Assembly: GCA_976551045.1 (NCBI GenBank)
Contig: CDPCPM010000014.1
Span: forward strand, 10,664,001 to 10,728,000
DNA length: 64,000 nucleotides
Source of the DNA: Glaucostegus cemiculus
Lineage: Eukaryota
Reading direction: 5' to 3'
A model generated the notes under the pieces. The model ran no database searches, was not told the origin of the DNA, and saw only the letters and a program-made list of their open reading frames with translations. The position numbers were made by a program, and so were the translations under genes. Numbering within the stretch: the stretch's first letter is position 1; each line of letters starts with the position of its first letter. Below are positions 6,178 to 62,225 of this stretch, piece by piece.

Positions 6178-6310
6178 ATCAGAACTGGTCAGTTCTGACT
6201 TAAGGTCATCAACCTGTAATGTCAACTCAATTTTTCGCTCTCCACAAATGATCTACTGGACATTTCCACAATGCTCTTCTATTTCAGGTTTCCAGCAACT
6301 GCAGTGTTAT
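6178..6310 (+). mobile_element. PLE pseudo-LTR fragment (family A), decayed
   Basis: cagttctgacttaaggtcatcaacctgtaatgtcaact...tccacaaatg...atttcaggtttccagcaactgcagt matches the other pLTR copies in this window. Confidence 0.6.
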
Positions 6311-6485
6311 CAATCTCACAGTTCCAGCGCTTATTTTTGTTTTCTATCCTCCGTCATCATTTCTTTTAGTTTTGAATTCTTTAGACAGATCAGTTGTGAT
6401 TAACAAGTCTTCATCGATCTCTCTCAGCTAGCACCAACGTTATTTGTGCCACTCAGTCTCTCTACTGCAGGTACAGTAGTGTGTG

Positions 6486-6788
6486 GGCAGGCATGGTAGT
6501 GTAACGGTTAGCGTAACGCTATTACAGCGCCAGCGACCCGGGTTCAATTCTGGCTGCTGTCTGTAAGGAGTTTGTACACTCTTCCCGTGACTGTGTGGGT
6601 TTCCTCTGGGTGCTCCGGTTTCCTCCCACATTCCAAAGACGTATGGGTTAGCAAGTTGTGGCAAGCTATGTTGGCGCCAGAAGTGTGGCGACACTTACGG
6701 GCTGCCCCCCAGAACACTCTACTCAAAAGATGCATTTCACTGTGTGTTTTGATGTGCGTGTGACTAATAAAGATATCTGATCTTATCT
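6486..6788 (+). mobile_element. tRNA-derived SINE with V-domain
   Basis: A-box-like tggtagtgtaacgg, B-box gggttcaattc, V-SINE core gtgggtttcctctgggtgctccggtttcctcccacattccaaagac, tail aataaagatatctgatcttatct; a second copy lies at 54627. Confidence 0.92.
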
Positions 6789-6789
6789 A

Positions 6790-7010
6790 GTCTCTACCTT
6801 ATCAGAGACATTCCATTTGTTCTCCCTACCCTTCCTCTTATTCTGAAATTTAAAACATCCTTGACTTGTAACATCACATTGTTCTGATAAAAGGTCATTG
6901 GTCTGAAATGCTAGCGCTTCTCTTTTGTCAGATATTGCCTGACCTGCTGAGTGTTTCCAGCATTTTCTATTTTATTTCAGATTTCCAGTATCTGCAGTTT
7001 GTTTTTCCTT
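6790..7010 (+). mobile_element. PLE pseudo-LTR (family A), interrupted upstream by the SINE
   Basis: gttctgataaaaggtcattggtctgaaatg followed by gcctgacctgctgagtgtttccagcattttc...atttcagatttccagtatctgcag. Confidence 0.75.
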
Positions 7011-8374
7011 CTGCTGTAATTGCAAGTGTTGTAATCAATGTCCAAGCCCAGAGATCATAATAGGGAGCAACTTTTCTATTTACTGCCTCTGAGTTGCCAC
7101 ATGTGCTCTTCAAAATGTGGATTGAATATACACTCTGGGCAATCAAAACCCTGATTCTGAACTTAACAATGGCTTTTTGTTTACAAATGACCAATGATTT
7201 AACACCATTTGGCAAACATCAGTGATGTACATGGTTCACAATCCTTCAACATACATGAAATAATTAAGACTTCATGGTAAATTTGCTGTGGCTTCACACA
7301 GGCTGTTTTCCTGCTGCTCTAGCACTGATCAACTAGACGGGCCTTTTGTGTTGGTTGAAACTGAAAGTGATCTTCTGGATTTTCCACAGAAACAGAATTT
7401 TTTGAAGTTGATTTTGCTAACCTTTGCCACTAGCAAGGAACTTACTCTGGCTCCAGATACTTATCCTCCAGATAGCATTTCACACCTTAGCAATCTCACT
7501 GTGGTTCCTTTTCCAACTCATGCATTTGGAAGTCTACTAACATCTGTTCTCTGAGCTAATTTAAGAAGTATTTTTCTGTGTACATCAAAATACAGAAGAA
7601 CATATATTTTCGCATTTTTTTAAGAGCAGTCAGTCTGGTTGAAGTGACCGCACAGATATAGTTGATCAAATAGCTTTCTGTTGATCTTTAAATTCTGTGA
7701 TTATAGTATCTAGTTGTTCAGAAATTATTTCCATTCTGCCACTCAGAATGTTTATCCAAGCAGAATACAATGTAGTTACTTGTAGTGATGTGCATATTCT
7801 TGGTCTGTTCAATGTGTTTCAATCTCTCAACAAATCCCTCCATGAGAAGTTTCTCCCAAACTCTGCTGTCACTGTGACAATAATTTTAATTGATAACCTT
7901 CATTACTGATTCTTCAACTGGAGGGGATTATTCTTGCTCATTCTATCAAAATTCCCTGCAGCAGTCTACTTCAACTGAATTTGAGCCTTATTTTTCAATG
8001 ATCTCTCCAGCTCTATGCCCTTAATTATAAACCAGAAGTTTTGTTGACTGATTTGCACTCACCTTTTCAAGGTAATAAACATTTCAATTCCCAGGCTCTT
8101 CTGATCATCCACATCTTTCAGTATCTTTCCATTTTATCTTTCCACTATCTTTTGTTTGTTTATGCGTGGTGTATCTGCCACTCTTCTGTCCATTCCATGA
8201 ACATCTCCATTTCTGCCCTAAGTCCTTTACTGTCCCTCTCTATCATGCCTTTGTGCCATGAGGAAATTTTGATATCACACACCTTGTGCTAAAGTCCAAA
8301 TTATCAGTTTCTGTAAGAAAAGAACAGGCACATGATCCCCAACCATCTTCCTAGCTGAACAATAACTATTAAGT

Positions 8375-8915
8375 CAGAAATAACAACAGAATATGTGAGA
8401 AATACTCAGCAGGTCAGGCAGCACCTGTAGAAAGAGAAATAGAGATAAAATTTCAGGTCAGGGACTCTTCATCAGAACTGGGAAGTGAGAAGATAAGTTT
8501 TAAGTCATAGAGAGGGTATGGGAGGGATGGATGGGATAAAGTAGGTATCTCTGGTGGGGTGAGGCCAAAGTTGCCCAGATGACCCCAATGTTTACAGAGT
8601 CCTCTGCTTAATTAAATAATGAGAGTGGTTCAAGTGAGAGCAAACAAGCAAAGGGACATGTTAAAACTGAAGTGCAAGTCAGATTAATTGCTAAAAACTG
8701 AAACCAAAAGGATAATATTGCTGAAAAGGTCTAGCAGGTCAGGACGGTTTCTATAGTGAGAGAAGAACTGTTAAGGTTACAGAGGGATAATTTTGTATCA
8801 GAATAAGCCAGTTCTGCTGTAAACAGGAAAACAGGTTATCTAAAATTATTGAATTTGTTATTAAATCTTGAAGGCCACAGCATGTTCAGAGTGGAAGGTG
8901 AGCTGCTGTTCCTTG
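8375..8915 (-). mobile_element. PLE fragments (family A): pLTR, second decayed pLTR piece, endonuclease 3' remnant
   Basis: aaatactcagcaggtcaggcagcacctgtagaaagag at about 8400, a second agcaggtcagg at about 8733, and a decayed match to the GIY-YIG C-terminal coding end at about 8830-8915. Confidence 0.7.
8441..8480 (-). ncRNA. Minimal hammerhead ribozyme motif (PLE-associated); core intact, cleavage triplet lost
   Basis: Minus strand reads cagtt-CTGATGA-agagtccctgacct-GAAA-ttttatctct. Confidence 0.6.
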
Positions 8916-10035
8916 TTAAGCCATACCCCTTCTTTCATTTTTGCCAATGACTTTCTATCCACTGTGCTACATTACCTTGAGCATAATTTTCTCAACATGT
9001 AAGACAAAAAGCACTTACCAAAAGCTATCAGAACTTCATATACCTTGTATCTGTGGCATTACCTGTATAGAAGAAACAAATGAAAATTGTCAACACAAAA
9101 GATTTTCAGAAGTGAAGGAATGTGTGGAATGTTGCCTATTATAAGTGTGACTATGGAAAATCAAATAAATAGGAAGCTGATGGACCTCGGTGGAGGCTTT
9201 ATCTGACCAAGTTACATTTTTGTTTCATAATTTTTCATATCACTTCATTGGGATTGTTCACTACAGATTATATGCAGGCTCTGTTCATTAGAATATGGCT
9301 TGCATGCCATCGTGTGACATAGAATGGAGACACATATCTGAGGGTTTCTGTATTTGAAAAGTATTGTCTATATTTCCTCTTAGTTGCTAGCAGAAAGGAA
9401 CATGTAAAGCTGAAAAAGTCCTTGTAGAGTGAATGATACCACTTTCTACGTTCTTCTGGGAGTTATCACACATTGAAGATCATATCCATTGTACCTCTTG
9501 GTGGGCAAAATCTACACTCCATTTCAGGAAGCTGCACTTTGGTTATTGGGAGGAGGTGACTAGGACCCTGGCAATGACTTTCCCTGTGGCAGATAACAGA
9601 AAAACCATTTTCTTGTTACTGCAATTTGATCTGATTCCTTTCTTGAAAATTAATGATCATATTTTTACAAATGCAATACAAGTTTTTGAAGAGAAAGGAA
9701 GCATATTTCATCCTGGAACCTTTTGAAAGAAACTGAAATTCACAAGCAACTTCATAAGAAATTTTGCACCTCATGGTGCAGCACATTTAGGAAGTACACA
9801 TTGGAAAATTATGTACTTCTCGTGCATGTAACAACTTCCCATTCCAACCTCTTTACAAGAAGGAGAGACAAAACTCAACTTCATACATGTGTTACAGATC
9901 TTCTAAGAATGGGGGTGCCCTGGCAGATCAGTATAATGAACTAATTGGGTTGGTGCAGTAGTAAGAAACATAAATATTGGCAGGATTTTATTGGTACTTT
10001 ATACAGAGATAGCCTGGTAATTGGGAAGACACTTT

Positions 10036-11879
10036 ATAGACAATAATAGACAATAGGAGCAGAAGTAGACCATTCGGCCCTTCGAGTCTGCTCCGCCATT
10101 TTGAGATCATGGCTGATCCTCAACACTCAATATCCCGTTCCTGCCTTGTCCCCATATCCCTTGATTCCCCTATCTATAAGAAACCTATCTAGCTCCTTCT
10201 TGAAAGTGCCCAGAGAATTGGCCTCCACTGACCTCTGAGGCAGTGCGTTCCACAAACTCACAACTCTCTGGGAGAAGAAGTTGTTCCTCACCTCTGTCCT
10301 AAATGGCCTACCCCTTATTCTTAAATCATGCCCTCTGGTCCTGGACTTCCCCAACATCTGGAACATACTTCCCGTCTCTATCTTGTCCAATCCCTTAACA
10401 ATCTTGTATGTTTCAATCAGATCCCCTCTCAATCTTCTCAATTCCAGCATGTACAATCCCAGTCTATCCAACCTCTCTGCATAAGACAGACCCGACATCC
10501 CCGGAATTAACCTCGTAAACCTACGCTGCACGCCCTCCATAGCCAGGATATCCTTCCTTAACCCTGGAGACCAAAACTGTACACAATACTCCAGGAGCGG
10601 TCTCACCAGAGCCCTGTACAAATGCAAAAGAATCTCTTTGCTCTTGTACTCAATTCCCCTCGTAATACAGGCCAACATTCCATTAGCCTTCATCACCGCC
10701 TGCTGCACTTGCTCATTCACTTTCAGCGACTGATGAACAAGGACTCCTAGATCCCTTTGTACCTCCTCTTTACCTAACTCCACACCATTCAGATAATAAT
10801 CAGCCTTCCTGTTCCTGCTCCCAAAGTGGATAACCTCACACTTATCCACATTAAACTTCATCTGCCAAGTATCTGCCCACTCACACAACCTATCCAAGTC
10901 ACCTTGAATCCTCCTAACTTCCTCTACACATGTTGCACTGCCACCCAACTTTGTATCATCAGCAAACTTGCTAATGTTATTCTCAATGCCTTCATCTAAA
11001 TGATTAACATAGATGGTAAACAGCTGCGGTCCCAGCACCGAGCCCTGCGGCACCCCACTAGTCACGGCCTGCCATTCCGAGAAACATCCATTCACCCCTA
11101 CCCTTTGTTTCCTATCTGCCAACCAGTTTTCTATCCAAGTTAATACCCTCCCCCCAATTCCATGAGCCCTCATTTTACCCACCAATCTCCTGTGCGGCAC
11201 CTTATCAAATGCCTTCTGAAAGTCAAGGTATACAACATCCACCGAATCTCCCTCGTCTATTTTCCTGGTTACATCCTCAAAAAACTCCAGTAGATTAGTC
11301 AAGCACGATTTGCCCTTGGTAAATCCATGTTGACTCGACCCAATCCTATCATTGCTATCCAAATATGCCGCTATTTCATCCTTAATAATGGACTCTAGCA
11401 TCTTCCCCACCACAGACGTCAGGCTAACTGGAGGATAGTTCCCCGTTTTCTCCCTCCTTCCTTTCTTAAAAAGTGGGATAACATTGGCCACTCTCCAATC
11501 CTCAGGAACTGACCCAGAACCTAGGGAACATCGGAAAATGAACACCAATGCATCCACAATTTCTAGAGCCACCTCCTTCAGTACCCTGGGATGCAAACCA
11601 TCCGGTCCTGGGGATTTGTCAGCCTTCAGCCCCATTAGTCTACCCATCACCATTTCTTTCCTAATGTCAATCCACTTCATTTCCTCCATCACCCTCTGCC
11701 TTTTGTCCATCCGTACCTCTGGGAGATTTCTTACGTCTTCCCCAGTGAATACAGATCCAAAGTACTTATTAAATTCGACTGCCATCTCCCTGTTACCCGT
11801 AATAATTTCACCCAATTCAGTCTTCAAGGGCCCAACATTGTTCCTAACTAGCTTCTTTCCCTTCACATACCTAAAAAAG
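10036..11879 (-). mobile_element. CR1 LINE, young 5'-truncated copy (different family from 2085-5366)
   Basis: Open RT frame; minus-strand 3' UTR ...gaagggccgaatggtctacttctgctcctattgtctattattgtctat with a short tandem tail; abrupt end of homology at about 11879. Confidence 0.97.
10127..11878 (-). pseudogene. CR1 ORF2 reverse transcriptase, 583 uninterrupted codons, no endonuclease
   Basis: [31 protein letters not shown] and SKFADDTKL are all intact; the CR1 part starts at FFRYVK. Confidence 0.95.
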
Positions 11880-12426
11880 GTATCCCCAGTATCTCCTGCA
11901 GTAGCAGCTCCTGCAGTAAAACAGAATGGGGGAGCAAGAAAATTGACAACTACCCCCCCCCCCCCCAACCCATCACCATCACCACCTTCTACAAAATAAG
12001 GCAGGAGTAATGCTTTAATCAGTCTGCAGACAATGAATATTAGATTAAGGCTTTAATATAGTAACTCCATAGAGATTAAATGGCATAGGTTATAATAGTC
12101 AGTTGGAACGGTCAAATGAATCATTCCTAGAAAATGCTGCAATATATTTGCTTTAACCTGTGTCCTTTCCAATGGAATATTTTTATATAAGAGTACTCTG
12201 CCATTGTTATAGCCAGTATCTCATCTAAGTGGCAGTTGTTCACGTGAAGCCAGCAGATAAGTATGAAACAAGTCATCACAACTGGCATCACATCTAACCC
12301 TGGCACTGATGCCCATTCACTTATTTTCCAGTAGGAATTGGTTAGAGATAAAGAGCGACAATTTTGCCCCCACCCTCTTCCCTTTCCTTAAATGAAGGAG
12401 TACTGCCATTGGACAGACATCATTAG

Positions 12427-12650
12427 AGACAAAGAGACTGCAGGTGCTGAAATCTAGAGCAAAAAACAAACTGCTGGAAGAACTCAGCGGGTCAAGGAGC
12501 ATCTGTGGAGGCAAAGGGATGGTCAGTGTTTTGGGTCAAGATCCTGCAACTTGTCCTGATGTAGGGTCCTTGACCCAAAATGTCAACCACCCCTTTGCCT
12601 CTACAGATGCTGCTTGACCCGCTGAGTTCTTCCAGCAGTTTGTTGTTTTG
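12427..12650. mobile_element. PLE-derived fold-back mini-element (family B), about 85-bp inverted arms
   Basis: aacaaactgctggaagaactcagcgggtcaag... is the reverse complement of ...cttgacccgctgagttcttccagcagtttgtt, with a spacer of about 11 nt. Confidence 0.9.
12553..12587 (+). ncRNA. Decayed minimal hammerhead motif
   Basis: gtc-CTGATGt-a-gggtc-ctt-gaccc-aAAA-tGTC-aac; stem II is a perfect 5 bp; G12 lost at a CpG. Confidence 0.55.
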
Positions 12651-12799
12651 GGATGGACATCAGTACTTGCTTTACAATTGCCATCTGGGCTGGGAGCAAG
12701 TACTTTAGCCCAAATTTTTGCTTACAGTTAGGGTCAACACCACTGGAGCCAAACAGTGGAATGAGGATAGTATATTAATCACTGGCGTATTTTCTTAGT

Positions 12800-13160
12800 G
12801 GTATTGCTGTGTTGTGTTTAAACTGCTGGACTTGCAGTCAGAGTTCTGGATTATAGAATCAGAGATGTGAATTCCAAACCCATTGTGGTGGTTGGAAATT
12901 TAAATTCAAGTAATTAAATCAAGCTGGAATAATTTTTTTAAAGCTTCATCTCTAAGGTTAACCATGAAACTGCTGGAGTGTTGTATAAACCAATGTGGTT
13001 CACCAAATTCCTTCAGGGAAGGAAATCTGACATCCTTATTTCATCAAGCCTATTTGTGACACTAGGCCCACCAATGTGGTTGACTTACTTGTCAATTCAG
13101 GGACAACTGTGGGCAGGTGATAAGTACTGCTAGCAATATCTGCATCCTATGAATGAATAG
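12800..13160 (+). mobile_element. Old SINE, chondrichthyan family with gggaaggaaatctg core
   Basis: ccatgaaact...tggttcac...ttcagggaaggaaatctg...catcctatgaatgaata; a related decayed copy lies at about 44600. Confidence 0.65.
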
Positions 13161-13199
13161 AACAATACTGGCTTGAAAATTTTGATCATCAACTATCAA

Positions 13200-13636
13200 A
13201 AAAGTTGCATTTTTGTGGTAAAATGCCCAGTGGCAGAAGGGCGATGTAATGGAATGGTGTTATGTGCCAACAGTGTGTTTTGCAATAACTGAAATATGCT
13301 TGAAATATGGTCATTGTTGTAATGTGGGAAAACTCAGCAGCCATTTTGCATTGAACAGACTCCCACAGATTACAAACTGATAATGATAATCTAAGATATT
13401 TTAGTGGCATTACTTGAGGGAATGTTATTGATCAGCACACTACAATGGAGAGGACTTCTCTGCTCATTCTCAAGATAATGGGACTTGTTATGTCCATGCG
13501 AGAAACAGATAGGAACTCAGCTGAGTAACTTCAATAGTGCAGCATTTCCTCAGATACTGTGCTCAAGACTCTGGAGTAAGACTTGAACCTACCACCTTCT
13601 GATACGGAGGCAAGAGTGCTCCCAACTGAACCACGA
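13200..13636 (-). mobile_element. DeuSINE/SacSINE1-like tRNA-derived SINE
   Basis: Minus-strand head cgtggttcagttgggagcactcttgcctccgtatcagaaggtggtaggttcaagtc with A and B boxes; body includes ctgtgggagtctgttcaatgcaaaatggctgctg. Confidence 0.75.
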
Positions 13637-17410: not shown

Positions 17411-20034
17411 TCAATTAGTTCCTGTGTAGTAAATTTCCTATGGTTCTTTGTTGGGTTACAATACCATTGAGAAACTAGTGAAAGGAGGATCTAATGGCAG
17501 GACATCACAGGAAAGTTTGTAGAAGTTTTGTGGGATTATTGAGATTGTAAGGAGGTTTACAATTAAGTAGAAGATAAACACTTTTGTTCTTCCTAGTCTT
17601 CAAAATGCCCTTTAAAGACTAGTCTGAGGAGTCTTAGCTTAAAATTTTTCATGTTTCACCTGACCCAAACGAAAATGTTTTTTTTTCACTGGTTCAAAAT
17701 TACCACTGTGTTAGCTGAATGGCACGGCACCTTATCCATATTGTGAGCCTAGATAGTAGTATCATAAAGCTTTTTCATATCCTAGTCAAGCCAATGCAAC
17801 ACCTTTACGTTCTCCCAGCACTCATACATTCAGTATTCAGCAGGAAACCACGGTGGTAACTAAGAACTAAATGTTAGTTCTGTTGTTAAATGGTAATGCC
17901 TCAAATATTGATATCAATAACTTATTGTTTGTTACTGTCGTCAATGGATCTGCAGCACCGTTAACGGCCATTGGCCCATTTAAAATGGAAAGTAGGGCTT
18001 GGTTACCATTTTTGGACTGAACTGGGTGTATTCTGGGCTGTGCACCCTCTGATCAAAGATCATGTAGCACTGTGGCTAAGGAGAACCCAAAAGTTAAGTT
18101 TCTCTTCAATGTTGGGTTGGAGAGAGAAGCTGCAGTGCACATCTGAGATGTCATAACCAGGCCAGGCCACTGCTAGTTTGATATCGTCTCCTACTGCTCT
18201 CACCTTATATCAGAGACATTCAAGCTCAGAGGTCACCTGGACTGATTGACGTTGTGATGATCTGCAGCCCATAAACTTACCCAGAGCTTCAACCGAAGCC
18301 TGCTAGTTTGATACAATGCAATAGTCTCTTGGCAGTTCTACTGAACTCTGAAGGAAATTCCATCTAAAGAGACAGAACCCTGGCCGATTGTTATTTCCCA
18401 CTTTTTATAAGTCATGAGAAACTCGTCCCGTATTCGCCACTGAGATCAACTTGATTACTTCTGACCAACACCAGCTGCATGGATAAATATGGAAACTAGT
18501 CTAAAAACTAACCACACCCAAAAAGACCTTTCAGATAACAAGTTTAGTATGAAAATGTTATATTCCTCTGAATTTTCTCCCAGTTTAAATGCTTCTCACC
18601 AAAAAGTTGGTGCAGTTCTGCACACTTTGTTCTTTGGGGTCAGAGACTACTCCTAGTGTTGTTAACATCTGACTGTATTGTTTGAAGTCCAGCCAAAGCA
18701 GCAATGAGTTGGGCCTTTCATTGGCTGAGTGCAGTTACTGTGGCTGCTTTGTCTTTGTGCTTTGAAGAGGCACAGCCACTATTTGATCTTTAGCTCTTGC
18801 ATTAACAATTATTTGAATTATTTTTGTTAACCAGCAGTGAGGCTTTTGAATTGCTATGGAATAAGTGACTCAGTAGCCTACAACTGGCATGTATTTTACA
18901 CATCGAAACTGGAGGCCATCATGCATTGGAGTTGAATTCCACAATTTTTTTTGACTACTTGGTAAAATAATCATAAAGGAAACTTACCAGGAACAGCAGG
19001 AGTTGTGAAATAAAGCAACCAGATGAACTACGGTAAACCTACACTTATCAAGTTGATTGCTTTCAGCCATTCTTCAATTTGCAAAAGGGGATGTATTCCT
19101 GGAAAACATTTAGTCAAGTCAAATTTCCTAAATTGAAAATGCTGGGCAAAATGCATTGGAGGAACTTTGACGAATGCTCCTGTGCATGGCCTGCAATTCA
19201 TTACAGTGAGAAACAGCTTTGCAAATCAAAGATAACTGCTTATTCTCTGGTGAGGTTGGACCCTTGTGTAGCCACTGAGAGCTAGAATTTCCCGGCCTTT
19301 GCACTGACATCAGCTATCCAATTTCATTGAAATTTTTTGGCACAAGTGGATTGCCAAATGGTGGGAGGTGTCTGGCAGAGTGAGACGTGACCATAACTTA
19401 GACTGGGACTTGGGGTCGGATGGGCAGGGGAGGTGGGGTGAGGCATGGCATACCAGGAGACCAGGCAAATTGTTTTTGGACAAACGAATGAAAGCCCTTG
19501 GCCTTTTGCTTTAAATATTAATCTTTTATTTCTAACTTTCACCTCCTGCTGGATGGAAGTCCTGGTAGCTTCTCTCATGCTCCATCACAGGTTATCCTTT
19601 ACCTTAGGTACACCTTGGAAACACAAGAGACTGCAGCAAAAATCTGGAGCAAAAAATAAACTGCTGGAGGAACTCAGCAGGTCAGGCAGCATCTGTAGAG
19701 CAAAGGAATGGTCGACATTTTGTGTTAAGACCCTGCATTAGGACTAAGGGTGTATAGGGGAAGTAGCCAGCATGAAGAGATGAGGGGGAGTGGTGAGGCA
19801 GGAGCTGGCAAGTGATGGGTGGATCCAGGTGAGAAGTGGTTGATGGGCAGATGGTGTCCAGTGGGCACGGGAGGGGTGGAGATAGTAACAGAGGCTTGGA
19901 GGTGATTGGTGGAGACCACAAAGGGCTGCAGATCAGAGACACAAAAAATTCTGCGGATGCTGGAATCTGGAGCAATACATAAAAAGTGCTGGAGGAACTT
20001 AGCAGGTCAGGCAGCATCTATTGAGGGAAATAAA

Positions 20035-20072
20035 CAATCAACATTTTGAGCCGAGACCCTTCATCAGGACTG
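20035..20072 (-). ncRNA. Minimal hammerhead ribozyme motif, CpG-decayed
   Basis: Minus strand cagtc-CTGATGA-a-ggg-tctcgg-ctc-aAAA-tGTt-gattg; stem I cagtc/gattg and stem II ggg/ctc still pair using G-U. Confidence 0.7.
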
Positions 20073-20402: not shown

Positions 20403-20620
20403 TTACCGGAAGTTAGAGAAATCGATGTTAAGGCCATCAGGTTGGAGACCCCCAAGGCGGAATATGAGGTGTTGTTCCTCCAACCTGCATCTGGCCTCAA
20501 CGTGGCAGTAGAGGAGGCCATGGATAGACATGTCAGTATGGGAGTGGGATGTGGAATTGAAGTGGCTGGCCACCGGGAGGTCCTGGCTGTTGCGGCGGAC
20601 GGAGTGAAGGTGCTCAAGAA
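20403..20620 (-). pseudogene. PLE GIY-YIG endonuclease C-terminal remnant
   Basis: FLEHLHSVRRNSQDLPVASHFNSTSHSH...RLEEQHLIFRLGGLQPDGLNIDF has the EH, VAxHF, RxxxE and PxGLN hallmarks of PLE endonucleases. Confidence 0.88.
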
Positions 20621-21584
20621 ACCAGTTACCCAAGCTGCATACAGGAGCCACAGCGGGAGCAATAAATGACACCCTGGCTGTTGCTGTGCGCTGCAGATTA
20701 TGGAATCTGATAAGAGATATGCTAAAAATCCCCCCATTATCTGGTTTCACTGATCACCTTCTTCATCAGATTTCATAATCTGCCTCCCAGCAATTCCTCT
20801 CAGCAACAAAGCACCTGCATTTAGTTGGGACATTTAACTTTAGGGACAATTGATATTCTGTTACTACAAGTCCTCCCCAGGTTGCAAATCCCCAACTTAT
20901 TTACAGAGACTGGTGGGATGAATTTGCCAGCTGCTGCGGGGCTGCAGGTATTTTCTGCTAGTGGGAACTTGGTTTGCGGCAATATCATTGCATCTTGCAG
21001 AGAAATCTGAATGTTTGAGTTAAACGCCATGGTTTAACTACAGTTTGCCCTTGGTTGGCCTATGTTTTTATTTAAATGTATTGCCACCTAGGTGGTCGCA
21101 TTTCCCACTAGTGAACTGTTGCAAACAGTTCTTAGGAACCAAACCCTGCTGTAACCTGGGGAGGACATTTAATGGGTTTCTTTCTGAGATGGGAGTCAGC
21201 AGTTTAACAATTGACATCATTCTACATAACTCAGATTCCAAACTGTTGATAGTACGTGAGGAGAGTGGATTAAGTATGTGCAGAGCCAGACAGTTTTGTT
21301 TTGTGAACTATTGGATGTTGTCACATACCTGTCAGTGCTTGCATCATTTATTCCGGTACCTTCAGGTGGAAGAGGTGATTTCAATGAGGAGACTAGCAGT
21401 AAATGCACATTGCTACAGGAAGAGATTTCCTCAGTGACAGTATATGAAGCAAATTGTTAAATGTGTTTATAAAGAAATATAGAGAGAAAAAACTAAAATG
21501 TCCATAAACTCTGTCTTCCTTAAACAAACAACCCACAAATCACCTAGGAAACATTAGTAACTTTTTGATGTCAATTACCTTGCA

Positions 21585-21700
21585 CCAGAACCTAAAACAC
21601 TAACTCTGCTTCTCTCTCCACTGTTGCTGCCTGACCTGCTGAGTATTTACAACATTTTCTTTTCAGATTTTTAGCATCTGCAGTTTTTTTTTTCTTTTTG
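21585..21700 (+). mobile_element. PLE pLTR 3' end (family A)
   Basis: cctaaaacactaactctgcttctctctccactgttgctgcctgacctgctgagtattt...agcatctgcag. Confidence 0.75.
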
Positions 21701-27675: not shown

Positions 27676-27780
27676 GTTCCAATGAAGATTCATTGACTTG
27701 AAACATTAACTCTATTTCACTCTTCACTGATACTACCTGCCCTGCTGAGTATTTCCAGCATTTGCTGTCCTTATTTCAAA
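27676..27780 (+). mobile_element. PLE pLTR 3' end (family A) with decayed hammerhead
   Basis: gttccaatgaagattcattgacttgaaacattaactct...cctgctgagtatttccagcattt. Confidence 0.7.
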
Positions 27781-36899: not shown

Positions 36900-37570
36900 T
36901 CCACCTCTGCTTCAGTTAATCTGGGTTTCTGCTATCTCTAGGCAAGACCCTTCCTGACCTTGCACCCTCAACCAAAGCATTGTTGGTCACACCTTCACTA
37001 GCACCATGTTCCATTTATATATCACCCCTTGCATCCTGATTCAGGAGTGCCCTGATCTTAAAATTCTTATTTTCAACTTCCTCCATGATGTCTCTTCTCT
37101 TTACTTCTGCTACTTTCTCCCGCCCTACACTCAGATCTCCAAATCTGGCCTTTTGCTTTCATCACTTTAGCATTTAGAAGCCATTCCATCAACTTGCATC
37201 CTGATACAGGAGTGCCCCGATCTTAAAATTCTTATTTTCAACTTCCTCCATGATGTCTCTTCTCTTTACTTCTGCTACTTTCTCCCGCCCTACACTCAGA
37301 TCTCCAAATCTGGCCTTTTGCTTTCATCTCTTTAGCATTTAGAAGCCATTCCATCAACTGCCCAGATTCCAAGCTATGGGATCATCTCTTTGAATTTCTC
37401 CTCATCTTTCTTCTGCTTTAAAACCTACCTCCTTGACCAAGTTTCTATTTGCCTATTCTGATGTGTCTTTATATTGCTTTGTCAAATTTTGTCTGATAAT
37501 GTTCTAGTGAAGCACTTTGAAGCTTTGCTCTGTTAAAAGGGCTGCATAAAAATAAGCTGCTGTAGATGTT
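36900..37570 (+). mobile_element. L2-clade LINE 3' fragment
   Basis: ttaaaacctacctccttgaccaag, gtcaaattttgtctgataatgttctagtgaagcacttt and ttaaaagggctgcataaaaataag form an L2-type 3' end. Confidence 0.7.
37029..37358. repeat. 165-bp tandem duplication
   Basis: 37029-37193 versus 37194-37358; 3 substitutions by eye. Confidence 0.97.
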
Positions 37571-41676: not shown

Positions 41677-41935
41677 AGATGCAAGCGATTGCAGAAGCTG
41701 GAATCTGGAGCAAAAAATAAACTGCTGGAAGAACTCAGCAGTGCAAGCAGCATCTGTGGAGGCAGAGAGATGGTTGATGTTTCTGGCTGAGAGCTTGCAT
41801 TAGGACTGAGAGAGTAGCGGGGAGATAGCCAGTACATAGAAGTGAGAAAGGGACTGGTTGGTAATAGATGGAACTAGATGGGAGAGTGTGTGGATAGTGG
41901 GCAGATGGAACCAGTTGGGGGAGGGTGCTAAAATG
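41677..41935 (-). mobile_element. PLE pLTR (family B)
   Basis: gctggaatctggagcaaaaaataaactgctggaagaactcagc... is collinear with 19621-19870. Confidence 0.85.
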
Positions 41936-41953
41936 GAAGTTTATTATTAAGTG

Positions 41954-42170: not shown

Positions 42171-42242
42171 CACAGTGCTTAGTATTTATCATGAATCATG
42201 ATACAACTTGGAAGCAGTGGGGAAGGTTGCTTATGTTTAAGT

Positions 42243-42410
42243 AAAACAGAAAATGCTGGAAATACTCAGCATTTGTGAAAACAGAAACGTGCAGGTTAAT
42301 CCTTTATCAAACTGAAACATTAACTGTTTCTCTTTCTACAAAGGCCGCCTGAATATCTCCAGCATTTTCTGTTCTTATTTATTATTTCTACCATCTGCAG
42401 TAATTTGCTT
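42243..42410. mobile_element. PLE-derived fold-back mini-element (family A)
   Basis: aacagaaaatgctggaaatactcag ... ctgaatatctccagcattttctgtt inverted arms. Confidence 0.75.
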
Positions 42411-43444: not shown

Positions 43445-43761
43445 ATAGAACATAGAACATAGAACAATACAGCACAGAACAGGCCCTTCGGCCCATCAAG
43501 CTGTGCCCTCCTACAAACATCTCCCAAACTAACTCTTTCCACCCTCATATCCTACTATTCCACATTCTTCCATGTGCTTATCTAACAATCTCTTAAACCT
43601 GTCCAATGTATCTGCCTCCACTACCACCCCAGGCAGTGCATTCCATGCACCAACCACTCTCTGGGTGAAAAACTTCCCTCTGACATCTCCCCTATACTTT
43701 CCACCAATTATCTTAAAGGCATGCCCTCTCGTCTTGAGCATCTGCGCTCTGGGAAAGAGGC
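43445..43761 (-). mobile_element. CR1 3' end, same family as 2085-5366
   Basis: Peptide LFPRAQM...GDVRGKFFTQRVVGAWNALPG...EECGIVGYEGGKS is nearly identical to ORF 4792..5289; (ttctatg)n tail. Confidence 0.95.
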
Positions 43762-48645: not shown

Positions 48646-48685
48646 CAATGGACAAGATAAAGATTAAACCTCTGTCTCAACAATC

Positions 48686-49067
48686 TCAACAGGAAGATCT
48701 TCAGGGTCAATTTCATTGCTTTGTTCTGCCCTTGCCTCAAGAATGCAGTTAAAGTATAATTGAGCTGCATAGTGGAGGGCAATATGGTCTTCAAAGATTG
48801 TGGCAGGGCTGCACTGTAATGCAGCTTTCTAATCTACAAGCACCTGAAAAGTTACTTAGGCTCCATGGTAGCTGTAAATACCTGCTATTTGTTCCTATCA
48901 CAAATGTACAAGCTTGGATCATTTGGATCAAAAAGAAGGAATCATTGCTGGAATACGTCTTCAGTACAGTGTAGACTTACCTCTAAAGTATTTTACGTGA
49001 GAGTTAAGCTATCAATTTATTGCACTTGAAGAGATAAGGTCATTTAGTCATCAGTCAGCTGGTGTTC
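48686..49067 (+). repeat. 382-bp direct repeat, copy 1
   Basis: Collinear with 50146-50527 at offset 1460; about 17 substitutions and no indels by eye. Confidence 0.97.
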
Positions 49068-50145: not shown

Positions 50146-50527
50146 TCAACAGGAAGATCTTCAGGGTAAATTTCATTGCTTTGCTCTGCCCTTGCCTCAA
50201 GAATGCAGTTAAAGTATAATTGAGCTGCATAGTAGAGGGCAATATGGTCTTCAAAGATTGTGGCAGGGCTGCACTGTAATGCAGCCTTCTAATCTACAAG
50301 CACCTGAATAGTTACATGGGCTCCATGGTAGCTGTAAATACCTGCTATTTGTTCCTATCACAAATGTACAAGCTTTGATCATTTGAATCAAAAAGAAGGA
50401 ATCATTGCTGGAATATGTCTTTAGTACAGTGTAGACTTACCTCTAAATTATTTTACGTGAGAGCTAAGCTATCAATTTGTTGCACTTAAAGAGTTAAGGA
50501 CATTTAGTCATCAGTCAGCTGGTGTTC
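50146..50527 (+). repeat. 382-bp direct repeat, copy 2
   Basis: Runs tcaacaggaagatcttcaggg ... cagtcagctggtgttc, matching copy 1. Confidence 0.97.
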
Positions 50528-51544: not shown

Positions 51545-51720
51545 AAAGCAAAGGTACAGGAAATTTAAAATGTAAACTAACGATGCAGTATCAACATGTC
51601 AGGTTGCATCTGTGGAAAGATGAAAAAAGTTAATGTTTTAACATGATGAACATGCATCAAAACAAGGAAACACAAGAGATGAAATTTTTAAACAAATACA
51701 GGGCGAGCTAAAATTGAGTA
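51545..51720 (-). mobile_element. Decayed PLE pLTR (family A)
   Basis: gtcaggttgcatctgtggaaaga...agttaatgtttt resembles the other pLTR copies. Confidence 0.45.
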
Positions 51721-54256: not shown

Positions 54257-54372
54257 GAAACTGCTGATGCTGGAAATCTGAAATAAACATAGAAAATGTA
54301 GGAAATACTCAGCAGGTTGGGCAGCATCTGCGGAAAGAGAAACAGCCTTGGACATGAAACAATAACCGTTCT
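54257..54372 (-). mobile_element. PLE pLTR end (family A)
   Basis: ctgctgatgctggaaatctgaaataaac...gaaatactcagcaggttgggcagcatctgcggaaagagaaacag. Confidence 0.8.
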
Positions 54373-54626: not shown

Positions 54627-54917
54627 TGTAGTGTAGCAGTTAGCGTAATGCTATTACAGCACCAGTGACCCAGGTTCAATTCCGGCCACTGTCTGTAAGG
54701 AGTTTGTACGTTATCCTCCTGTCTGCATGGGTTTCCTCCAGGTGCTCCGTTTTCCTCCTACATTCCAAAGTCATACGGGTTAGGAAGTTGTGAGCATGCT
54801 TATGTTGGTGCTAGAAGTGTGGTGACACTTGCAGGCTGCCCCCAGAATACTCAACGCAAAAGATGTATTTCACTGTGTTTCGATGTACATATGACTAATA
54901 AAGAAATCTTATCTTAT
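54627..54917 (+). mobile_element. tRNA-derived V-domain SINE, same family as 6486-6788
   Basis: gtagtgtagcagttagcgtaatgctattacagc...gttcaattcc...cattccaaag...gactaataaagaaatcttatcttat. Confidence 0.92.
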
Positions 54918-55873
54918 ATGTCCAAACTATTAAAATGTGCCTCTTATTACTACAAATAGTATCTGCATGCTGTGTCTTTCAAATGCTTCTGTTTTAATGC
55001 CAAATACCACACAATGATAGCCTTTAATGTCTTACTCTTTGATTTTCTTATTTATTGGATAATCAAATGATGTTCACACTCCAGAGGAGAGCTGAGAAAA
55101 GGATTTGTAGTTTCTAGGGACACATCAACTTAGTCACTGCAATCAAGATGAGAAATGTTGGGATTGCACTGCAAAAAAACAATGTTCCATTGCTTCAATA
55201 TTCTGTGCATTTCTTCAGCCTGTTTCCTGGCTCTGTTACCTGGAAGATATTTTATGATCACATCTGATATTGTTCCTGGATTTCCTCAAGATTTATACCT
55301 GAAGAAACTCTAATTGCATGGTTATATCCAATATATGTTACAGAAGTAGCCCATGTCTCCCTTACAGTCCAAGCCAACATTTATGCCCTATTTATCCCCC
55401 GCCCCTACTATTTCCCTTTTCTAAGCACATTATCACGTTTTTCTATTGCTTTGTCCTTCAAGTGCATACCTAGGTTTCCTATAATGCATTAACACTGTTG
55501 GCCTCAAGTATCATTGCAAATTGGGCTGACTGGAGCTAGTTGTGGCTGCCAGTGTTGAAGGGAATTATTGACTCTTAGCCACCTCCATGTAATTAAGTCT
55601 CAGCCTTCCATAAGGGCATATGTGCTGACTGATGCTTTCAGCTTGTCCGTCAGGTTACTCCTTATTTGCTGGCCACCTTATGGAGACCAGTGAAGGAGGC
55701 TGTTAATGTCCAGGAATCCAGCTCTCTGATCCACTGGTGGACAAACAGCATTGGAGCACTGCCCCTCTTCAAATGAATGGGGATTTTTGGCCCTGTATTT
55801 TATTTTGGAAAAGGTAAGGAAGTTAAGTTCAGTTCTATAATTTAACTTAAAGACATTTAAGAACAATTGCAAA

Positions 55874-56701
55874 TGTTACGAAGTAGCTTACTTAGGCAAA
55901 TATCCCTTTAAGATGGGACGTTGTGAGTGTGTGCAACGTATTGCGTCAGCAGAAGATGGGACTAACGTGATGAGGTCATTGCAAGAAAGAAAAAGATAAG
56001 AGAGAGAGAGACAGACAGACAGATGGAAAGAGAGAAGAAGGAGAGACGGCAGCCTGTTTTGTTTCTGTCGTTGGATGAAGGACAGTAACTGTGTTTGTCA
56101 CTAAAATCCGTGGATGGATTTCTGGAGTAGTCCAGTGGAGTTCACTTTGTCGGTAACCTGTAGAAGGACACAGGTGTTTGCGTGAACAACCACATTTTGG
56201 ATGCTCTTCAGAGTGGCAGATACTGTGGAACAAAGTGACGAATTCACTTTGCTGCTAACCTGTAGAAGAACACAGGTATTTGCATGGACAGTCACGATCA
56301 AGGAGTTTTCAGGGTGAGAAAGTCACAACCGAGTAAGCCCTGAAGTGTCGTTTGAGTTCCGAGTGGAACATTCGGATTTCGTGATTCCTCTCTAATCTCT
56401 CTCTATATCTATGTTTTGTCTTCGGTGGACAGTGCTTGTGAAGAAGCCTTTATTTGTGTCATCTTACGGCTTATTGAACTGAACTTTAAGAACTAATTCC
56501 TGGACTTGGAGTTTAGGAACTTGCCGCACACACACAACGAGTAGTTTTGGGGTTATAGTTTAAGATTCTAATATTTTGTTTTGTACTAATATACTAACTT
56601 TTTCTTCTTATTTTACATATTATCGGATGTAGTTATTAATAAAGTAGTTTTAACACTGAAGTATGAATTGGTGTGCTTCTTTTGTTGCTGGTTTCGTAAC
56701 A
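55874..56701 (+). mobile_element. Solo LTR (828 bp), probably Gypsy-type
   Basis: TG...CA ends with a perfect 9-bp TIR tgttacgaa/ttcgtaaca; TSD gcaaa at 55869-55873 and 56702-56706; aataaa about 60 bp from the right end. Confidence 0.93.
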
Positions 56702-57669
56702 GCAAAGCTTTGACAGACTTTGACAGGAAATGAGGCCTGAGGCCTGGGGCCTGAGGCCGACTCACTGCCCAGCTGTCTTTATGCCTCCTGAGTGCAGGTT
56801 CAACCCTCCCCTCTGCAGGTAAGTGCAGGCAGATAGAATCTGACAGTTGGCCCAATTCACATTGATTCACTCATAGTTAGCACTCTTTGGGTACAAGATT
56901 TCTCCTTAATGCCCTATTCCATGTATTAATGGCTCCTTGGTCTAACATTGGTGCCATTTATCAGTGTAATTTGACTGAATTCAGTCAAACCAGCAAAAAA
57001 CATGGAGATTCTACAAACAAGCCACATAAAGCCAGACTCCAATTTCTATGACCTTTAGCAATGCTGTGAAAATTATTGTGATAGATCCTGGACCCACCAC
57101 AACAAAGCTACACCCCAGATCAAAGTAATGTGGAAGATATTTTTCAGCCAATTCAGTTATAGATTCATAGAAATATTACAACACAGAAGGGAGGTATTCA
57201 TTCCAATGTGTCTGTGCCAATTGAAAAAGACTAACCAGCTGAAGTGAGTTCCAGATTTCTATCATTCTCTGGGCAAAAATATGTTTCCTCTAATTGTTCT
57301 ACCAACTATGTACTTTCTGCTGTTTGAATAATAATGCACTAGATTAAATACATCAATGAATAGTTACTAATGCAAAAGAAGTCAAGATGCAAGATAAGGT
57401 GAATGCAGGGGCACAAAAATAGAAGAGCCTGAAGAAGCAACCAAAGTCAAGATTGTTTTGCTGGATTCATGGTATCCAGTTAGGTACCAAATAATTCTAA
57501 CTATTGTATTAGTTGATAGCAGTTTTATGTGGTAAGTTTTATGTGAGCAGTTTGTTTTTCAGATGTTACCCCAGAAAGATGATAATCCAAAGTATCTAAT
57601 GCAATTCATTCAATTATGAAGGCAATTAGACTAAAGCAATAAGTGTTTTAAATTATCTCCTTTTTAAAT

Positions 57670-58730
57670 TCATAAAGAAAGGCAGGAGAAGGCCATGTAA
57701 CCCTCAAGCCAGCTGCACCATTCAATAAAATGATGGCTAATGCTGTTTCTGCCTTGTCCACTTTCCCACATAATCCCTCCAAACCTTGATTCCCTTAATA
57801 TCCAAAATTCTATTGACTTCAGTCTTGAGTATACTCATAAACTGACCATCTGCAGGGCAAGCAGAGAATTCAAAAGGTTCAGTCTCCATAAAAAAAATAT
57901 TTTCATCTCATTCCTATATGGTGTCTCACCCAAAGATTGAGCCCCTGTGTTTGCATTCTCCAGGTTAAGAAAACCTCTTGGTATCTACCCTCTCAATACT
58001 TCATGGAATTTTTTATGTATGAATGAAATTACCTCCCATTCTTCTAAATTCCTCTGGGCATTGGCCAGTCTCAATCTCTCCTCTGAGGGCAGCACTCTCT
58101 TCTCACCTCCATCCCAGGGATCAACCTAATAAATATGTCCCGTTCCAAAGAGGATATCCTCTTTTAGGTACAGAGCTAAAACTGCAGACTGTCTCTCAAT
58201 GAAGTCTTGCCAAAGCCTTTACAATCTCAGGCAAGATTTCCTTCCTTTTCCTCTTGCAATAAAGGCCAACAATTAAGGCCTGCTTAATTCCTCACTGTAT
58301 CTGAATGTTTATGTTCTGTGTCACATGAACCAACACATCAAGATCTTCTGTATGCCATTTACAATTTCCCTCAGTATAATAAAAATTGTGCTTTTTAATC
58401 ATTTATCAAGTTACTGAACCTTATGCTTCCCCACATTATAGTCCATCAGTCACCTTAATACCACTCACTTATTCTCTCCATAACCATTTGCAGACTCTTT
58501 TCAACTTCCTTACAACTCACTTTCAGATTAGGTTTGTATCGCCATGAAACATTACATTATGTCTTTTAATTTAAATTGTTAATATCTATGAATAGCTAAG
58601 GCCCAACATTAATCACTGTGGTGCCCTCCAGTAACAGTCTGGTAACCTGAAAATGACCCAATGCGTCCTACTCTCCATTTTATGTCTTTTAACCAATCCC
58701 CTATTCACTTTGATGTATCACTCCCAACTT
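57670..58730 (-). mobile_element. Decayed CR1 fragment
   Basis: aggagaaggccat...caccattcaataaaatgatggct tail; ttgcaataaaggccaaca; ctgaaaatgaccca. Confidence 0.7.
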
Positions 58731-59944
58731 CAGTGACTACCAGCAAACATTTTAAACAGTAATCAGTTGTCTAACGAACAGTATGATATCAGTCCTAGTG
58801 TGTGTTTCAGCTGCTTTACTAAGCTGATATCTTATGCAACATGTTAGTTTAAAATAGTGTTGCAGTTTAAGGCTTCATCTTGGTTGACTCAACTCTCTTT
58901 GGTGCCTAAAGAATCAGCAGAAATCCCTTTACCCCCACCTCTACTGGTGTGTTACCATTCTCAGCCGACAACATGACTGCTGCTGAAAAGAGGATACCAG
59001 GAACACTTGTGGGATGGCATTCAGTCTGGGACAGATTCATTTGTCCATCTACAGTTTTGCACTCTATTTAAGAATAAAAGTTTGATTCGTAAAGCTTCAG
59101 TCCAGATGGTTGAGCCTAACTGAACCCATTCTAGAGAGAAAACCATGCAAGACTTCATCCTGAAGCATTATAGTGAAATGAAGTTATGACTCATTTTCCG
59201 TTCTGGTTGCTTTAGATTGACTTAAATCAACTAAAAGAACATTTTGTCCAGCACTGGAATAATCTAGCTTCAAATACTGTGCAACTGGTTTGAGCAGCTC
59301 CAGTTGAATGAGGTTGATTCAGTGTGCAACACTGTTACGTTTACAATTTACAATTCTCTCATCTGCTGAATGAACTTGGACTTGTCCAAGTTTGGTTCCA
59401 TCAGCACGTCATCCGCTGTGATTTTTCTTGAGGGGTAAATTTCAGTTGTAAACCAGCAGGTTTTTAAACATGGATATAATTCTAATAACATTCTAATCCA
59501 TTGCCTGCCTGGAGACTGCAAATATTGTGAGGGTGCCCATCCCAAAGGAAACCCAGAATCATTGTTGTCACACAGTGGGCAGGATGCCTAAAGGAACCTA
59601 TAAACCCATATATCCGTTCTGCAACAGATTAATTACAACTTTACCTTTGTTTAAATTAGGAACTAGCCCCTGAATGTAGCTGTAGAAATACTCCAGCTGT
59701 ACTCCATTTGTTTGAAGTGGATTCTTCTATCATTGCATCATTTAAGAAATGTTGGGCACCCTCGCAATATTTGCAGCCTGCAGGCAAGGAGAGGATTACA
59801 CTGGCTGGTTATTATTATAAAGAAATTTTAGTCACCTCTGCCCACTCAGGTTCTCCTGACACTGCTGCCACCAGAGACGTGGTCTCTTGGAATTCTCCAC
59901 CCTTTCCCTTCAGCCCACCTCCCTACTCCATGCTGTACATATAC

Positions 59945-60310
59945 ATAGAAACTGATAAATAGGATCAGGGGTAGACTATAGTTTGGCTTCAAATACTGTG
60001 CAACTGGTTTGAGCAGCTCCAATTAAATGAGGTTGATGACAAGGCTGTTAGGTTTACAATTTACAATTCTCTCCGCTTTGACCATGCTCCATTATTCAAG
60101 CTGATTGTGGCACATCCTCTGCCTCAGTCCTAGATCCCTACCTCTCCTCATGCCTTTGTGTGCCAAGAAATCTGTCTGCTTCCTTCTTAAATAGATTCAG
60201 TGATTTGGCCTCCACAGCCCCCTGTGGCAGACAATTACACAGATTTACCTCCCTTGAGTGAATACATCTCTCCTCATCTCATTCTGAGACTGTGACCCCT
60301 TGCACTAGAA
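59945..60310 (-). mobile_element. CR1 3' end carrying an inserted local duplicate
   Basis: aaataggatcaggggtagactat...tggcctccacagcc...ttacacagattta...ctcctcatctc. Confidence 0.65.
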
Positions 60311-60863
60311 CAGCCACCTCCCGTCCGCTCCGCGCATCTACTTTGTATTGACTTCAGAACAAACAGTCGGTCGTTGTTAATAGCCACTTCAACTATTACT
60401 CGGGACCAATATCGATCAGTATCGAGGACTCCACTAGTGTTTTGCAAAAGGGTGTGGCTCGAATACCCATTGGTTAGATATGGTCCGTCTTTTTTGTGTG
60501 CAGGCCTGCGGTGTATCTGGAAAGCAGTCTGGCTGTATTATCGGTTCTGTGCTTTCTATGTATGTGAACTCTCCAGCAATAGATGAGATCTGCGAGTCCT
60601 GCTGGTTATGCCCTTGAGAGTGAAGAAACGCTCAGTGCACTTATCGTTTCCAAGCTATGTCTCAGCTCTTAACAACTGTCTCCCTTGTGAACAAAGTAGC
60701 TGCCATGCAGCAGTGTATTCCAAAGCACTTCACATGTGGCAGAATATGGCACTTAGACTCATGCACAATAACGGAAAGAAATGCCCGCAAGCTTGGTCAA
60801 AAACGATTTTGAGGAGCATCTCTAAAATGGGGGAAAGTAGTGTGTGTCTGTTTCTCTCTTTCC

Positions 60864-60866
<3 letters not shown>

Positions 60867-60915
<49 letters not shown>
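60867..60915. repeat. (TG)24 microsatellite
   Basis: Perfect dinucleotide run. Confidence 0.98.
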
Positions 60916-60918
<3 letters not shown>

Positions 60919-62104
60919 GAGGGGGAGACGAGGGGGTTGGTACCCAAGGACAGATCCATCGATGCGTCCATGATAGCCAGTGGGGATAATCGTGAGGTCA
61001 ACACTGGAAGCATGCAGGGATCTCAAATACTGGAGGTTTTGAAAATAGGGAGGATATGCGGTCGGGAAAGGCTATGGAAGAATCTGGGCAAAGGATGAGA
61101 AGGTTAAAGCTGATGCGGCAAGGAAATTGAAATAGCTTATGCCGCGTAACTTATTCGGCAAAGCTGATAGACTATTAGGACCCTGCTCCATTATTCAAGG
61201 TGATGGTGGCAGATCCTCTGTCTCAGTGTTATATCCCTGTCTCAGCGCAGGCACTGGGAATTATACATTCCAATGGGGGCGAAAATGACTTTTCCCAGAA
61301 TGTCGAATGCTCCTTTCCCTGCGGCGTAGCTGCGGTGGCGGCAGGAGGCGGGAGGTTGGGAGAGGAAAGTGATTCCAAATACAGCTGATCATGGGGAAAT
61401 TCAGTGAACCTTTACGACGTAGAAAGTACATATGCAAAATAGTGCAATGGGTTGATACTCCAACAGGCTGTGCCACTGAGCGATAGGAAGAGAGATACGT
61501 GAACACTTAACTCACTGTGAATCTTTGTACTGTGTATTTTACACGAGGAAAGTGGTGAACATACTTCAGGAAGGAGGGTGGATGAATGGATAGAAATAAG
61601 GATAGACAACATGTTCCTTAGTGTATACAGACACTTAAAAACAATGGTTTAAGTAAATGTTTTAAAAGGTTAAGGTTGGAAGGTTTAATTTTAAAATAAT
61701 TCGCAGTTTTTCCGAAGTAATTTGATCAATTCGATACAAAATAACTGCTTCACTTTCGTTTACTGTTTGCTAAAGGTTGCTGGATTGTGCTTTTTTCCTT
61801 TGTTCTTTCAATAAACATGTGCAATGTATCTTCCCGCCACAATCACACGCATTTATGCTTACATTGTGAATAATTTCAGTACAAGAGCAACGTTACTCAC
61901 AGCTGCGCCTACGTCCACATTACGTTGAAACGAATGTGAAACAGGAATAGCAAAATAACAGTTGATTTTTTTTTTCGGAGGTGGTGACTGTAAATTGTGC
62001 GGTGAAAGAAAAGCACATTTGGCAATGTGCTTAAAGCTAAGCCATTGTCAAAGGAAACGAATGTGAAATCAGCCCGGCTCTGCTTTTGCCTCCCATATTA
62101 GGCT

Positions 62105-62225
62105 TCCCCTTTTCCTATCTTCAGTCCTGAAGAAGAGTCCTAACACGAAACATTAACCTCCTGCTTTTCTCCACGGATGCTGCCTGGTCTGCTGAGTTCC
62201 TCCAGCATCATCGTATTTTTCACCT
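62105..62225 (+). mobile_element. PLE pLTR end
   Basis: ttcagtcctgaagaagagtcc...ctccacggatgctgcctggtctgctgagttcctccagcatc. Confidence 0.8.
62122..62157 (+). ncRNA. Minimal hammerhead motif; both core segments retained, stems weakened
   Basis: cagtc-CTGAAGA-agagtcctaacac-GAAAC-att-aac. Confidence 0.55.

Follow-up and report, generated by a model that had tools for sequence, protein, structure and literature searches.

Probable minimal hammerhead ribozymes in decayed Penelope-like elements of a Glaucostegus cemiculus contig

The stretch of Glaucostegus cemiculus DNA analysed here (64,000 nucleotides of contig CDPCPM010000014.1, hereafter the window) carries nine motifs that are very probably decayed minimal type I hammerhead ribozymes (HHRs), lying in the 3' pseudo-long terminal repeats (pLTRs) of truncated Penelope-like elements (PLEs, likely of the Neptune clade) from four families, and predicted to be inactive as they stand. 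The motifs were picked out in a sequence-only reading of the same DNA, and a string check and an alignment recover all nine strings at their coordinates and on their strands. The dinucleotide following GAAA is, as that reading had it, TG in five copies and CA in three; the remaining copy has TT. Its remark that no copy looked fully intact holds for all nine (0/9), each lacking at least one core or stem III base. A profile built from the nine copies, which match it by construction, has seven further matches in the window (E<1e-5), all of them partial copies, as opposed to a single match (E 6.7) in the reversed window. Under the family labels used below (A to E), family C holds the copies at 6190, 6881, 8480 and 27676, family D those at 12553, 19745 and 41808, family B the one at 20072 and family A the one at 62122. 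The features that belong to these elements are the following.

5437..5805, minus strand: PLE reverse transcriptase (RT), decayed N-terminal piece; 33% to P0001, E 8e-9
6190..6227, plus strand: minimal hammerhead, family C, decayed; G8, A9 and A13 changed
6881..6915, plus strand: minimal hammerhead, family C, decayed; G8, C15.2 and U16.1 changed
8443..8480, minus strand: minimal hammerhead, family C, decayed; both boxes intact, stem III palindrome lost
8704..8831, minus strand: pLTR copy, strongly decayed; match to the nine-copy profile
12436..12548, minus strand: family D pLTR, inverted and 5'-truncated, head-to-head with the copy at 12553; position 9 is C; absent from the sequence-only reading
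12553..12587, plus strand: minimal hammerhead, family D, decayed; position 9 is T (C in the family), G12 lost
19711..19745, minus strand: minimal hammerhead, family D, decayed; position 9 is C, G5 and G12 lost
20035..20072, minus strand: minimal hammerhead, family B, decayed; first box intact; G12 and C15.2, both in CpG, lost
20403..20627, minus strand: PLE GIY-YIG endonuclease (EN), C-terminal part; about 330 nt separate its end from the family B ribozyme downstream, same strand
21590..21685, plus strand: family C pLTR fragment; only the 3' half of the ribozyme present
27676..27710, plus strand: minimal hammerhead, family C, decayed; U4, G5 and G16.2 changed
41773..41808, minus strand: minimal hammerhead, family D, decayed; position 9 is C, G5 and G16.2 lost, stem II broken
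42240..42402, strand not applicable: inverted pair of family C pLTR fragments; repeat and profile match
51591..51668, minus strand: pLTR copy with ribozyme remnant, strongly decayed; assigned to family C
54259..54344, minus strand: family C pLTR fragment without ribozyme; profile match
62122..62157, plus strand: minimal hammerhead, family A, decayed; CUGAAGA box and GUU site, boxes intact, G16.2 lost, mismatches in stems I and II

The copy at 6190..6227 is probably an inverted end copy of an old minus-strand element, to judge from the RT fragment on the opposite strand at 5437-5805. On the minus strand, 326 nt separate the family B copy from the family D copy downstream of it at 19711..19745. 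An Rfam match to MIR904 at 12502-12607 is the inverted pLTR pair.

Architecture and pairing of the motif

In copies that were not selected for the ribozyme, families A, B and C have the canonical CUGANGA, GAAA and NUH boxes as the majority at every position, and the motif lies in the pLTR in sense to the open reading frame (ORF). Both results support the class first proposed, a minimal type I hammerhead in PLE pLTRs. Across the 2.85 Gb genome that was searched, an exact canonical descriptor finds 3,068 matches and its reversed control finds none. The architecture agrees with the published minimal hammerhead consensus, down to the extra base after position 9. The majorities of the five families differ from one another in 2 of 13 core columns, in 8 of 8 upstream columns and in 8 of 12 columns of the spacer.

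The loop-less stem III, read as the palindrome ACGU formed by positions 15.2 and 16.2, is supported by the pattern of CpG decay at that pair, where 352 copies not selected for the ribozyme have TG 107 times, CA 106 times and CG 77 times, the decay that had been deduced from the window copies. The proposed ancestral core stands in part. CUGANGA with GAAAC-GU(C/U) fits families A, B and C, and a single shared CUGAUGA ancestor does not, the first box being CUGAAGA in family A, CUGAUGC in family D and CAGAUGA in most of family E.

The compensatory difference claimed for stem I is borne out: its first pair is C-G in 119 and U-A in 59 of 266 copies, the remaining classes being C-A (45, decay) and U-G (17). 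That claimed for stem II is weaker than stated and is largely wobble. Position 11.1 of family C is indeed U in 90 of 113 copies, but position 10.1 is G in 52 and A in 45 of 102, and over 301 copies the first stem II pair is G-C in 126, G-U in 93 and A-U in 41. The copy at 62122 belongs to a GUC/GAC family, its AAC being a mutation. Among 13 aligned related copies the stems pair in 88.9% of cells as opposed to 12-51% when slid, a test that is weak alone. In sum, a single pair of stem I varies in a compensatory way and stem II by wobble-type changes, and related copies represent few independent events.

Two further elements flank the motif. Complementary segments CAGAUGCUG and CAGCAUCUG, 20-90 nt downstream of the cut site, are conserved in all families and pair to close a long hairpin whose 3' arm lies in an optional tail (for example at 19946-20020 of the window, minus strand); 2 of 17 columns of this arm differ between families. 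The hairpin is possibly a structure at which reverse transcription starts. All five families have a pyrimidine tract followed by CAG ahead of stem I, also in cases where the partner strand does not pair with this stretch. In Drosophila virilis the corresponding place, at the 5' end of stem I, is an intron end (PMC4209133). The idea that a pyrimidine tract and YAG, at the 5' end of stem I or before the ATG, act here as a splice acceptor found no supporting joint among the rows listed.

Families and carrier elements

The genome holds at least five families of these elements, and the window copies come from four of them. The sequence-only reading had counted two. Of 632 matches from all loci, 602 are distinct and 552 have sufficient downstream sequence; mixture clustering of these on columns outside the ribozyme, with two to eight families tried, gives five by the Akaike information criterion (AIC). 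Profiles of the downstream part, the ribozyme left out, find 150 matches in 790 kb of the genome and none in the reversed control. Abundance was taken from 99 stretches of 10 kb (990 kb) at hand-picked round coordinates on large contigs, a sample that is not strictly random; it contains 190 pLTR matches, which extrapolates to about 550,000 per genome. The 169 usable sampled copies divide into 89 of family C, 31 of D, 26 of E, 12 of B, 10 of A and one without a family, and family D alone extrapolates to roughly 90,000 fragments per genome. Family C is the oldest and families A and B are the two youngest. Subfamily clustering separates family D into two subfamilies with differing flanks and finds no clear split in family C.

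The motif is joined to PLE coding sequence well beyond the window. With the EN piece of the window as query, a first look at the genome yields 47,534 candidates, of which 150 were scored, and the EN loci fetched have the motif at a distance downstream similar to that of the family B copy in the window. In 113 EN matches a pLTR follows within 800 nt (A 25, B 68, C 7, D 6, E 7), at family medians of 150-440 nt from EN to motif and on the shared strand. Fuller elements are also present. Locus L314 has the order pLTR-RT-EN-pLTR, and its two motifs, both decayed, are direct copies separated by about 3.1 kb; L318 reads RT-EN followed by a family D pLTR. The translations of L231 and L237, read by eye, contain RT motifs, a CX4CxxC linker and a GIY-YIG domain. 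A linker of the form CX2-5CxxC between RT and EN defines Neptune and Nematis (PMC8557442), and Neptune is the likelier of the two in a vertebrate (10.64898/2026.07.22.740005). The closest named protein relative, from Chiloscyllium punctatum, is 56% identical over 39% of the query.

In a tree built from 24 EN pieces, family A, family B with canonical E, and family C each form a separate, supported group. Family D enters it as one row, and one family E row falls inside the C clade on a long branch, probably a false link. The RT frame of L314 has an ATG 23 nt past the cut site, but 16 codons beyond this ATG the majority sequence of family A has a stop in frame. A DNA search aimed at reaching the 5' end of family B returned mostly matches to an insert of 120 nt that belongs to a different repeat.

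Most copies are 100-300 nt long and have no coding sequence. Their 5' ends are scattered, as expected of truncation, and their alignment (3') ends fall into two groups, at columns 110-119 and from column 135 onward, resembling the PLE tail (PMC11167929). Head-to-head inverted pairs within 500 nt, an arrangement described for PLEs (PMC8557442), make up 30 of 73 opposite-strand neighbours, and 9 of 44 same-strand neighbours lie within the same distance.

The motif is covered without gaps in 78 of the 190 sampled matches; 15 of these keep both boxes and NUH, 3 keep the palindrome as well and 2 the stems in addition. G12 is part of a CpG, and between a third and a half of the copies of families A, B, D and E have lost it; an A stands in its place in 20 of 42 copies of family A, 30 of 83 of family B and 27 of 57 of family D. 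Identity to the family majority, for A to E in order, is 0.96, 0.96, 0.86, 0.87 and 0.93 in the core and 0.96, 0.94, 0.83, 0.86 and 0.87 in the downstream flank, CpG sites included. Because core identity is near flank identity, the copies read as decaying neutrally after insertion, with no visible selection.

Cleavage and the core variants of families D and E

The motif of a live element would be expected to cleave the transcript after GUC or GUU, and only once its ACGU had paired with that of a second copy, in the other pLTR or in another transcript. Dimer cleavage, advanced as an inference in the sequence-only reading, is a published model. A minimal hammerhead of Schistosoma is uncleaved as a monomer and cleaves at a low level as dimer or trimer (PMC4209133), and that of Anolis cleaves only with the element's protein (PMC11167929); by analogy with this literature, cutting here would probably be aided by the protein of the element, and the behaviour published for Schistosoma and Anolis would apply to live A and B elements. 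Reverse transcription would begin about 70-105 nt downstream of the cut site; in Anolis the PLE tail marks reverse-transcription starts (PMC11167929). Such a start just downstream of the motif would be the reason why nearly every truncated insertion keeps it and why the motif, lying close to the end that is copied first, is so abundant.

Several results weigh against the interpretation as decayed PLE hammerheads. An Rfam scan of the window returns 7 weak matches, the hammerhead family not among them, and Pfam gives no match for the window EN piece; on five other fragments it gives a sub-threshold RT in one and GIY-YIG in none. The elements are likely of the Neptune clade, a call made from the linker alone, and Nematis shares that linker. 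When two copies each of 10 natural intact motifs are co-folded, the double hammerhead joined through ACGU never appears, and the stem II strands are swapped instead, in an energy model without tertiary contacts that makes this a weak test. Folded singly, the seven of these 10 motifs that have U7 pair their first box with the cleavage strand. Raw RNA reads of organism A, a related organism (three runs on a family A copy and one on a family D copy) lie on both strands of the motif copies and have no pile-up of starts or ends at the predicted cut, again a weak test with fragmented libraries. Finally, the core of family E (0.929) is better kept than its downstream flank (0.87), which has CpG sites and mixed subfamilies.

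One locus stands out in the RNA data. At L251:1497-1586, in run X21 of organism A, a family D-like motif is covered by thousands of mostly one-direction reads, 3,294 of which share a loose end at 1500; these probably represent an exonised copy. The family D box at L251:1506-1514 is deeply covered in runs X16, X17 and X21 (organisms A, D and E), and among the rows listed the C at position 9 has no difference. Family D may be shared across species.

In families D and E the first box mostly departs from CUGANGA, and the two are treated as variants of the motif rather than as canonical members. Position 9 is C in 41 of 47 family D copies, in 0 of 42 family A copies and in 1 of 76 of family B, so the change at this position in the copies at 12553, 19745 and 41808, put down to decay in the sequence-only reading, is a feature of the family. 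The C occurs in both D subfamilies (20/21 and 21/26), and the remaining core majorities are canonical. A CUGAUGC descriptor finds 323 exact matches in the genome, mostly on D-type backgrounds among the matches listed, and a control descriptor with G at position 9, a transition and the likelier chance change, finds 98, mostly on A and B backgrounds. In family E, position 4 is A in 24 of 35 copies, with 381 exact genome matches to the corresponding descriptor, the control having been run at position 9 only. Families D and E together account for 57 of the 169 sampled copies. The literature searched contains no family variant with A9C or U4A, and papers on PLE hammerhead variants and their supplements may list them.

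Our best guess is that in families D and E the ribozyme is weakened and its fold retained, cutting not being required for copying. Two alternatives address the function of these variants within the interpretation as PLE hammerheads and leave the identity of the motif untouched. The first makes the ribozyme dispensable: D and E would have spread with a dead core, and the motif would be kept as a protein-binding or folding element near the start of reverse transcription. This is plausible and falls somewhat short of an even chance. The share of D (31) and E (26) among the sampled copies favours it, as does the lack of read ends at the cut in the RNA of the related organism, and it has precedents. 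In Anolis, catalytic hammerhead mutants of a PLE insert normally in vitro and no RNA sequencing reads end at the cut (PMC11167929), and Naiads are abundant without canonical hammerheads (PMC8557442). Against it, 11 of 13 core columns are constant over five families with distinct EN lineages, which fits selection on catalysis in those lineages that are active, and the two youngest families, A and B, are canonical.

The second alternative, which we regard as possible and less likely than the first, holds that family D, as an entire lineage of autonomous PLEs, uses a rebuilt CUGAUG-C-A core and still cleaves: the extra A would replace A9 against G12, with the C bulged between G8 and A9, and U4A would be a second family-wide variant. 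The near-absence of the C from families A and B, its presence in two subfamilies with different flanks and an otherwise canonical core, the excess of 323 over 98 matches and the attachment of D pLTRs to RT-EN elements are all as this account would have it. Of 48 D copies, 47 retain an A after position 9, but this A is nearly fixed in the other four families as well and so gives no evidence of a register shift. Published motifs lack the extra base in 2 of 44 rows (PMC4209133), whereas changes to the core usually lower activity sharply (PMC3088659).

It is very unlikely that the copies are independent non-autonomous retrozymes or SINE-like units (SINE, short interspersed nuclear element) that cleave as tandem dimers at their own loci. 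The small size and non-coding nature of most copies, the 9 of 44 close same-strand neighbours, the B and D copies at 20072 and 19745 only 326 nt apart, and the tandem retrozymes of one chondrichthyan (10.64898/2026.07.22.740005) could be read in this way; yet all five families are found joined to EN, the scattered 5' ends look like truncation, both of the close copies lack G12, and a repeat scan, covering the window only, finds no tandem array of the motif. That the host keeps at least one window copy as a functional ribozyme has nothing in its favour and a negligible likelihood, since every copy lacks at least one core or stem III base and sampled copies decay at flank-like rates.

Neighbouring repeats and comparison with known systems

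Other repeats share the window with the PLE fragments. Copies of a long interspersed nuclear element (LINE) with an apurinic/apyrimidinic (AP) endonuclease and RT lie at 2367-5289 (plus strand) and 10127-12052 (minus strand), the latter keeping a 641-aa open frame with an RT match at E 1.4e-30; we take both to be CR1-like. A 3' LINE piece at 43453-43761 is 91% identical to 5057-5366. An abundant repeat of about 300 nt with a tRNA-like head occurs at 6485-6790 and 54628-54917, about 86% identical to copies elsewhere; by its look it is presumably a SINE of the V-SINE type, and ARAGORN found no tRNA in it. There is a 165-nt tandem duplication (98%) at 37028-37359 and a 382-nt duplication (96%) at 48686-49067 and 50146-50527. 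Short direct and inverted duplications and a (TG)24 run occupy 59259-61252 and 60001-64000. The CpG count of 60001-64000 is 110, compared with 18-53 in the other 4-kb bins, and this stretch is possibly a promoter region.

The family-wide changes of D and E bear on whether PLEs need ribozyme cutting (PMC8557442, PMC11167929). If these motifs are active they are new natural core variants; if they are inactive, large families have spread without cleavage. Should they cleave, their presence beside canonical A and B in one genome would amount to a natural experiment on the need for cleavage, and searches with fixed boxes would miss about a third of these motifs. Dead copies in a genome of shark or ray type add little in themselves, and the added value lies in the family structure. 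PLE hammerhead variants were reportedly found to cleave as dimers by Lunse et al. in 2017.

Among the closest known systems is the minimal hammerhead of PLEs (Cervera and De la Pena 2014, PMC4209133), in which the hammerhead class, the dimer model, variation among many families and opposite-strand pairs are already published. The motifs here share its type I topology, CUGANGA with the extra base, G10.1-C11.1, GAAA, the palindromic 15.2-16.2 without a loop 3, NUH and the place in the pLTR, and they likewise form many families per genome, mostly as single truncated copies, with opposite-strand pairs. Families D, with C at 9, and E, with A at 4, break the fixed boxes of the published descriptor. 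Neither change appears in 44 rows of the published alignment, and the descriptor could not have returned them. A term search of the supplement to that paper, in the part covered, found no shark or skate term, and literature searches for chondrichthyan PLE hammerheads returned none.

The Poseidon element PAc of Anolis carolinensis (Frangieh et al. 2024, PMC11167929) likewise places a pLTR hammerhead upstream of the coding region of the next unit and has an optional tail of 30-40 nt and a head-to-tail organisation. PAc belongs to the Penelope/Poseidon clade and its ORF starts from stem II, whereas the elements here have a Cys-rich linker between RT and EN; activity has been shown for PAc only, the present elements being known from sequence. 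PLEs of the Neptune clade (Craig et al. 2021, PMC8557442) match in their RT, CX2-5CxxC linker, C-terminal GIY-YIG EN, inverted 5'-truncated pLTR and tail, with the caveat that Nematis shares the linker. Non-LTR retrozymes (Li et al. 2026, 10.64898/2026.07.22.740005) also have a type I hammerhead, one related to those of PLE pLTRs; they are tandem non-coding repeats, whereas in the present case coding elements have left truncated ends at dispersed sites. Natural variants of the hammerhead core (Perreault et al. 2011, PMC3088659) include the rare changes U3-A8, A6C, A6a, U13a, U15.1-A16.1 and U4C, and the text passages of that paper, Figure 5 left out, do not name A9C, a G8/A9 insertion or U4A. 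Those published variants are single cases, whereas the changes in families D and E are family-wide.

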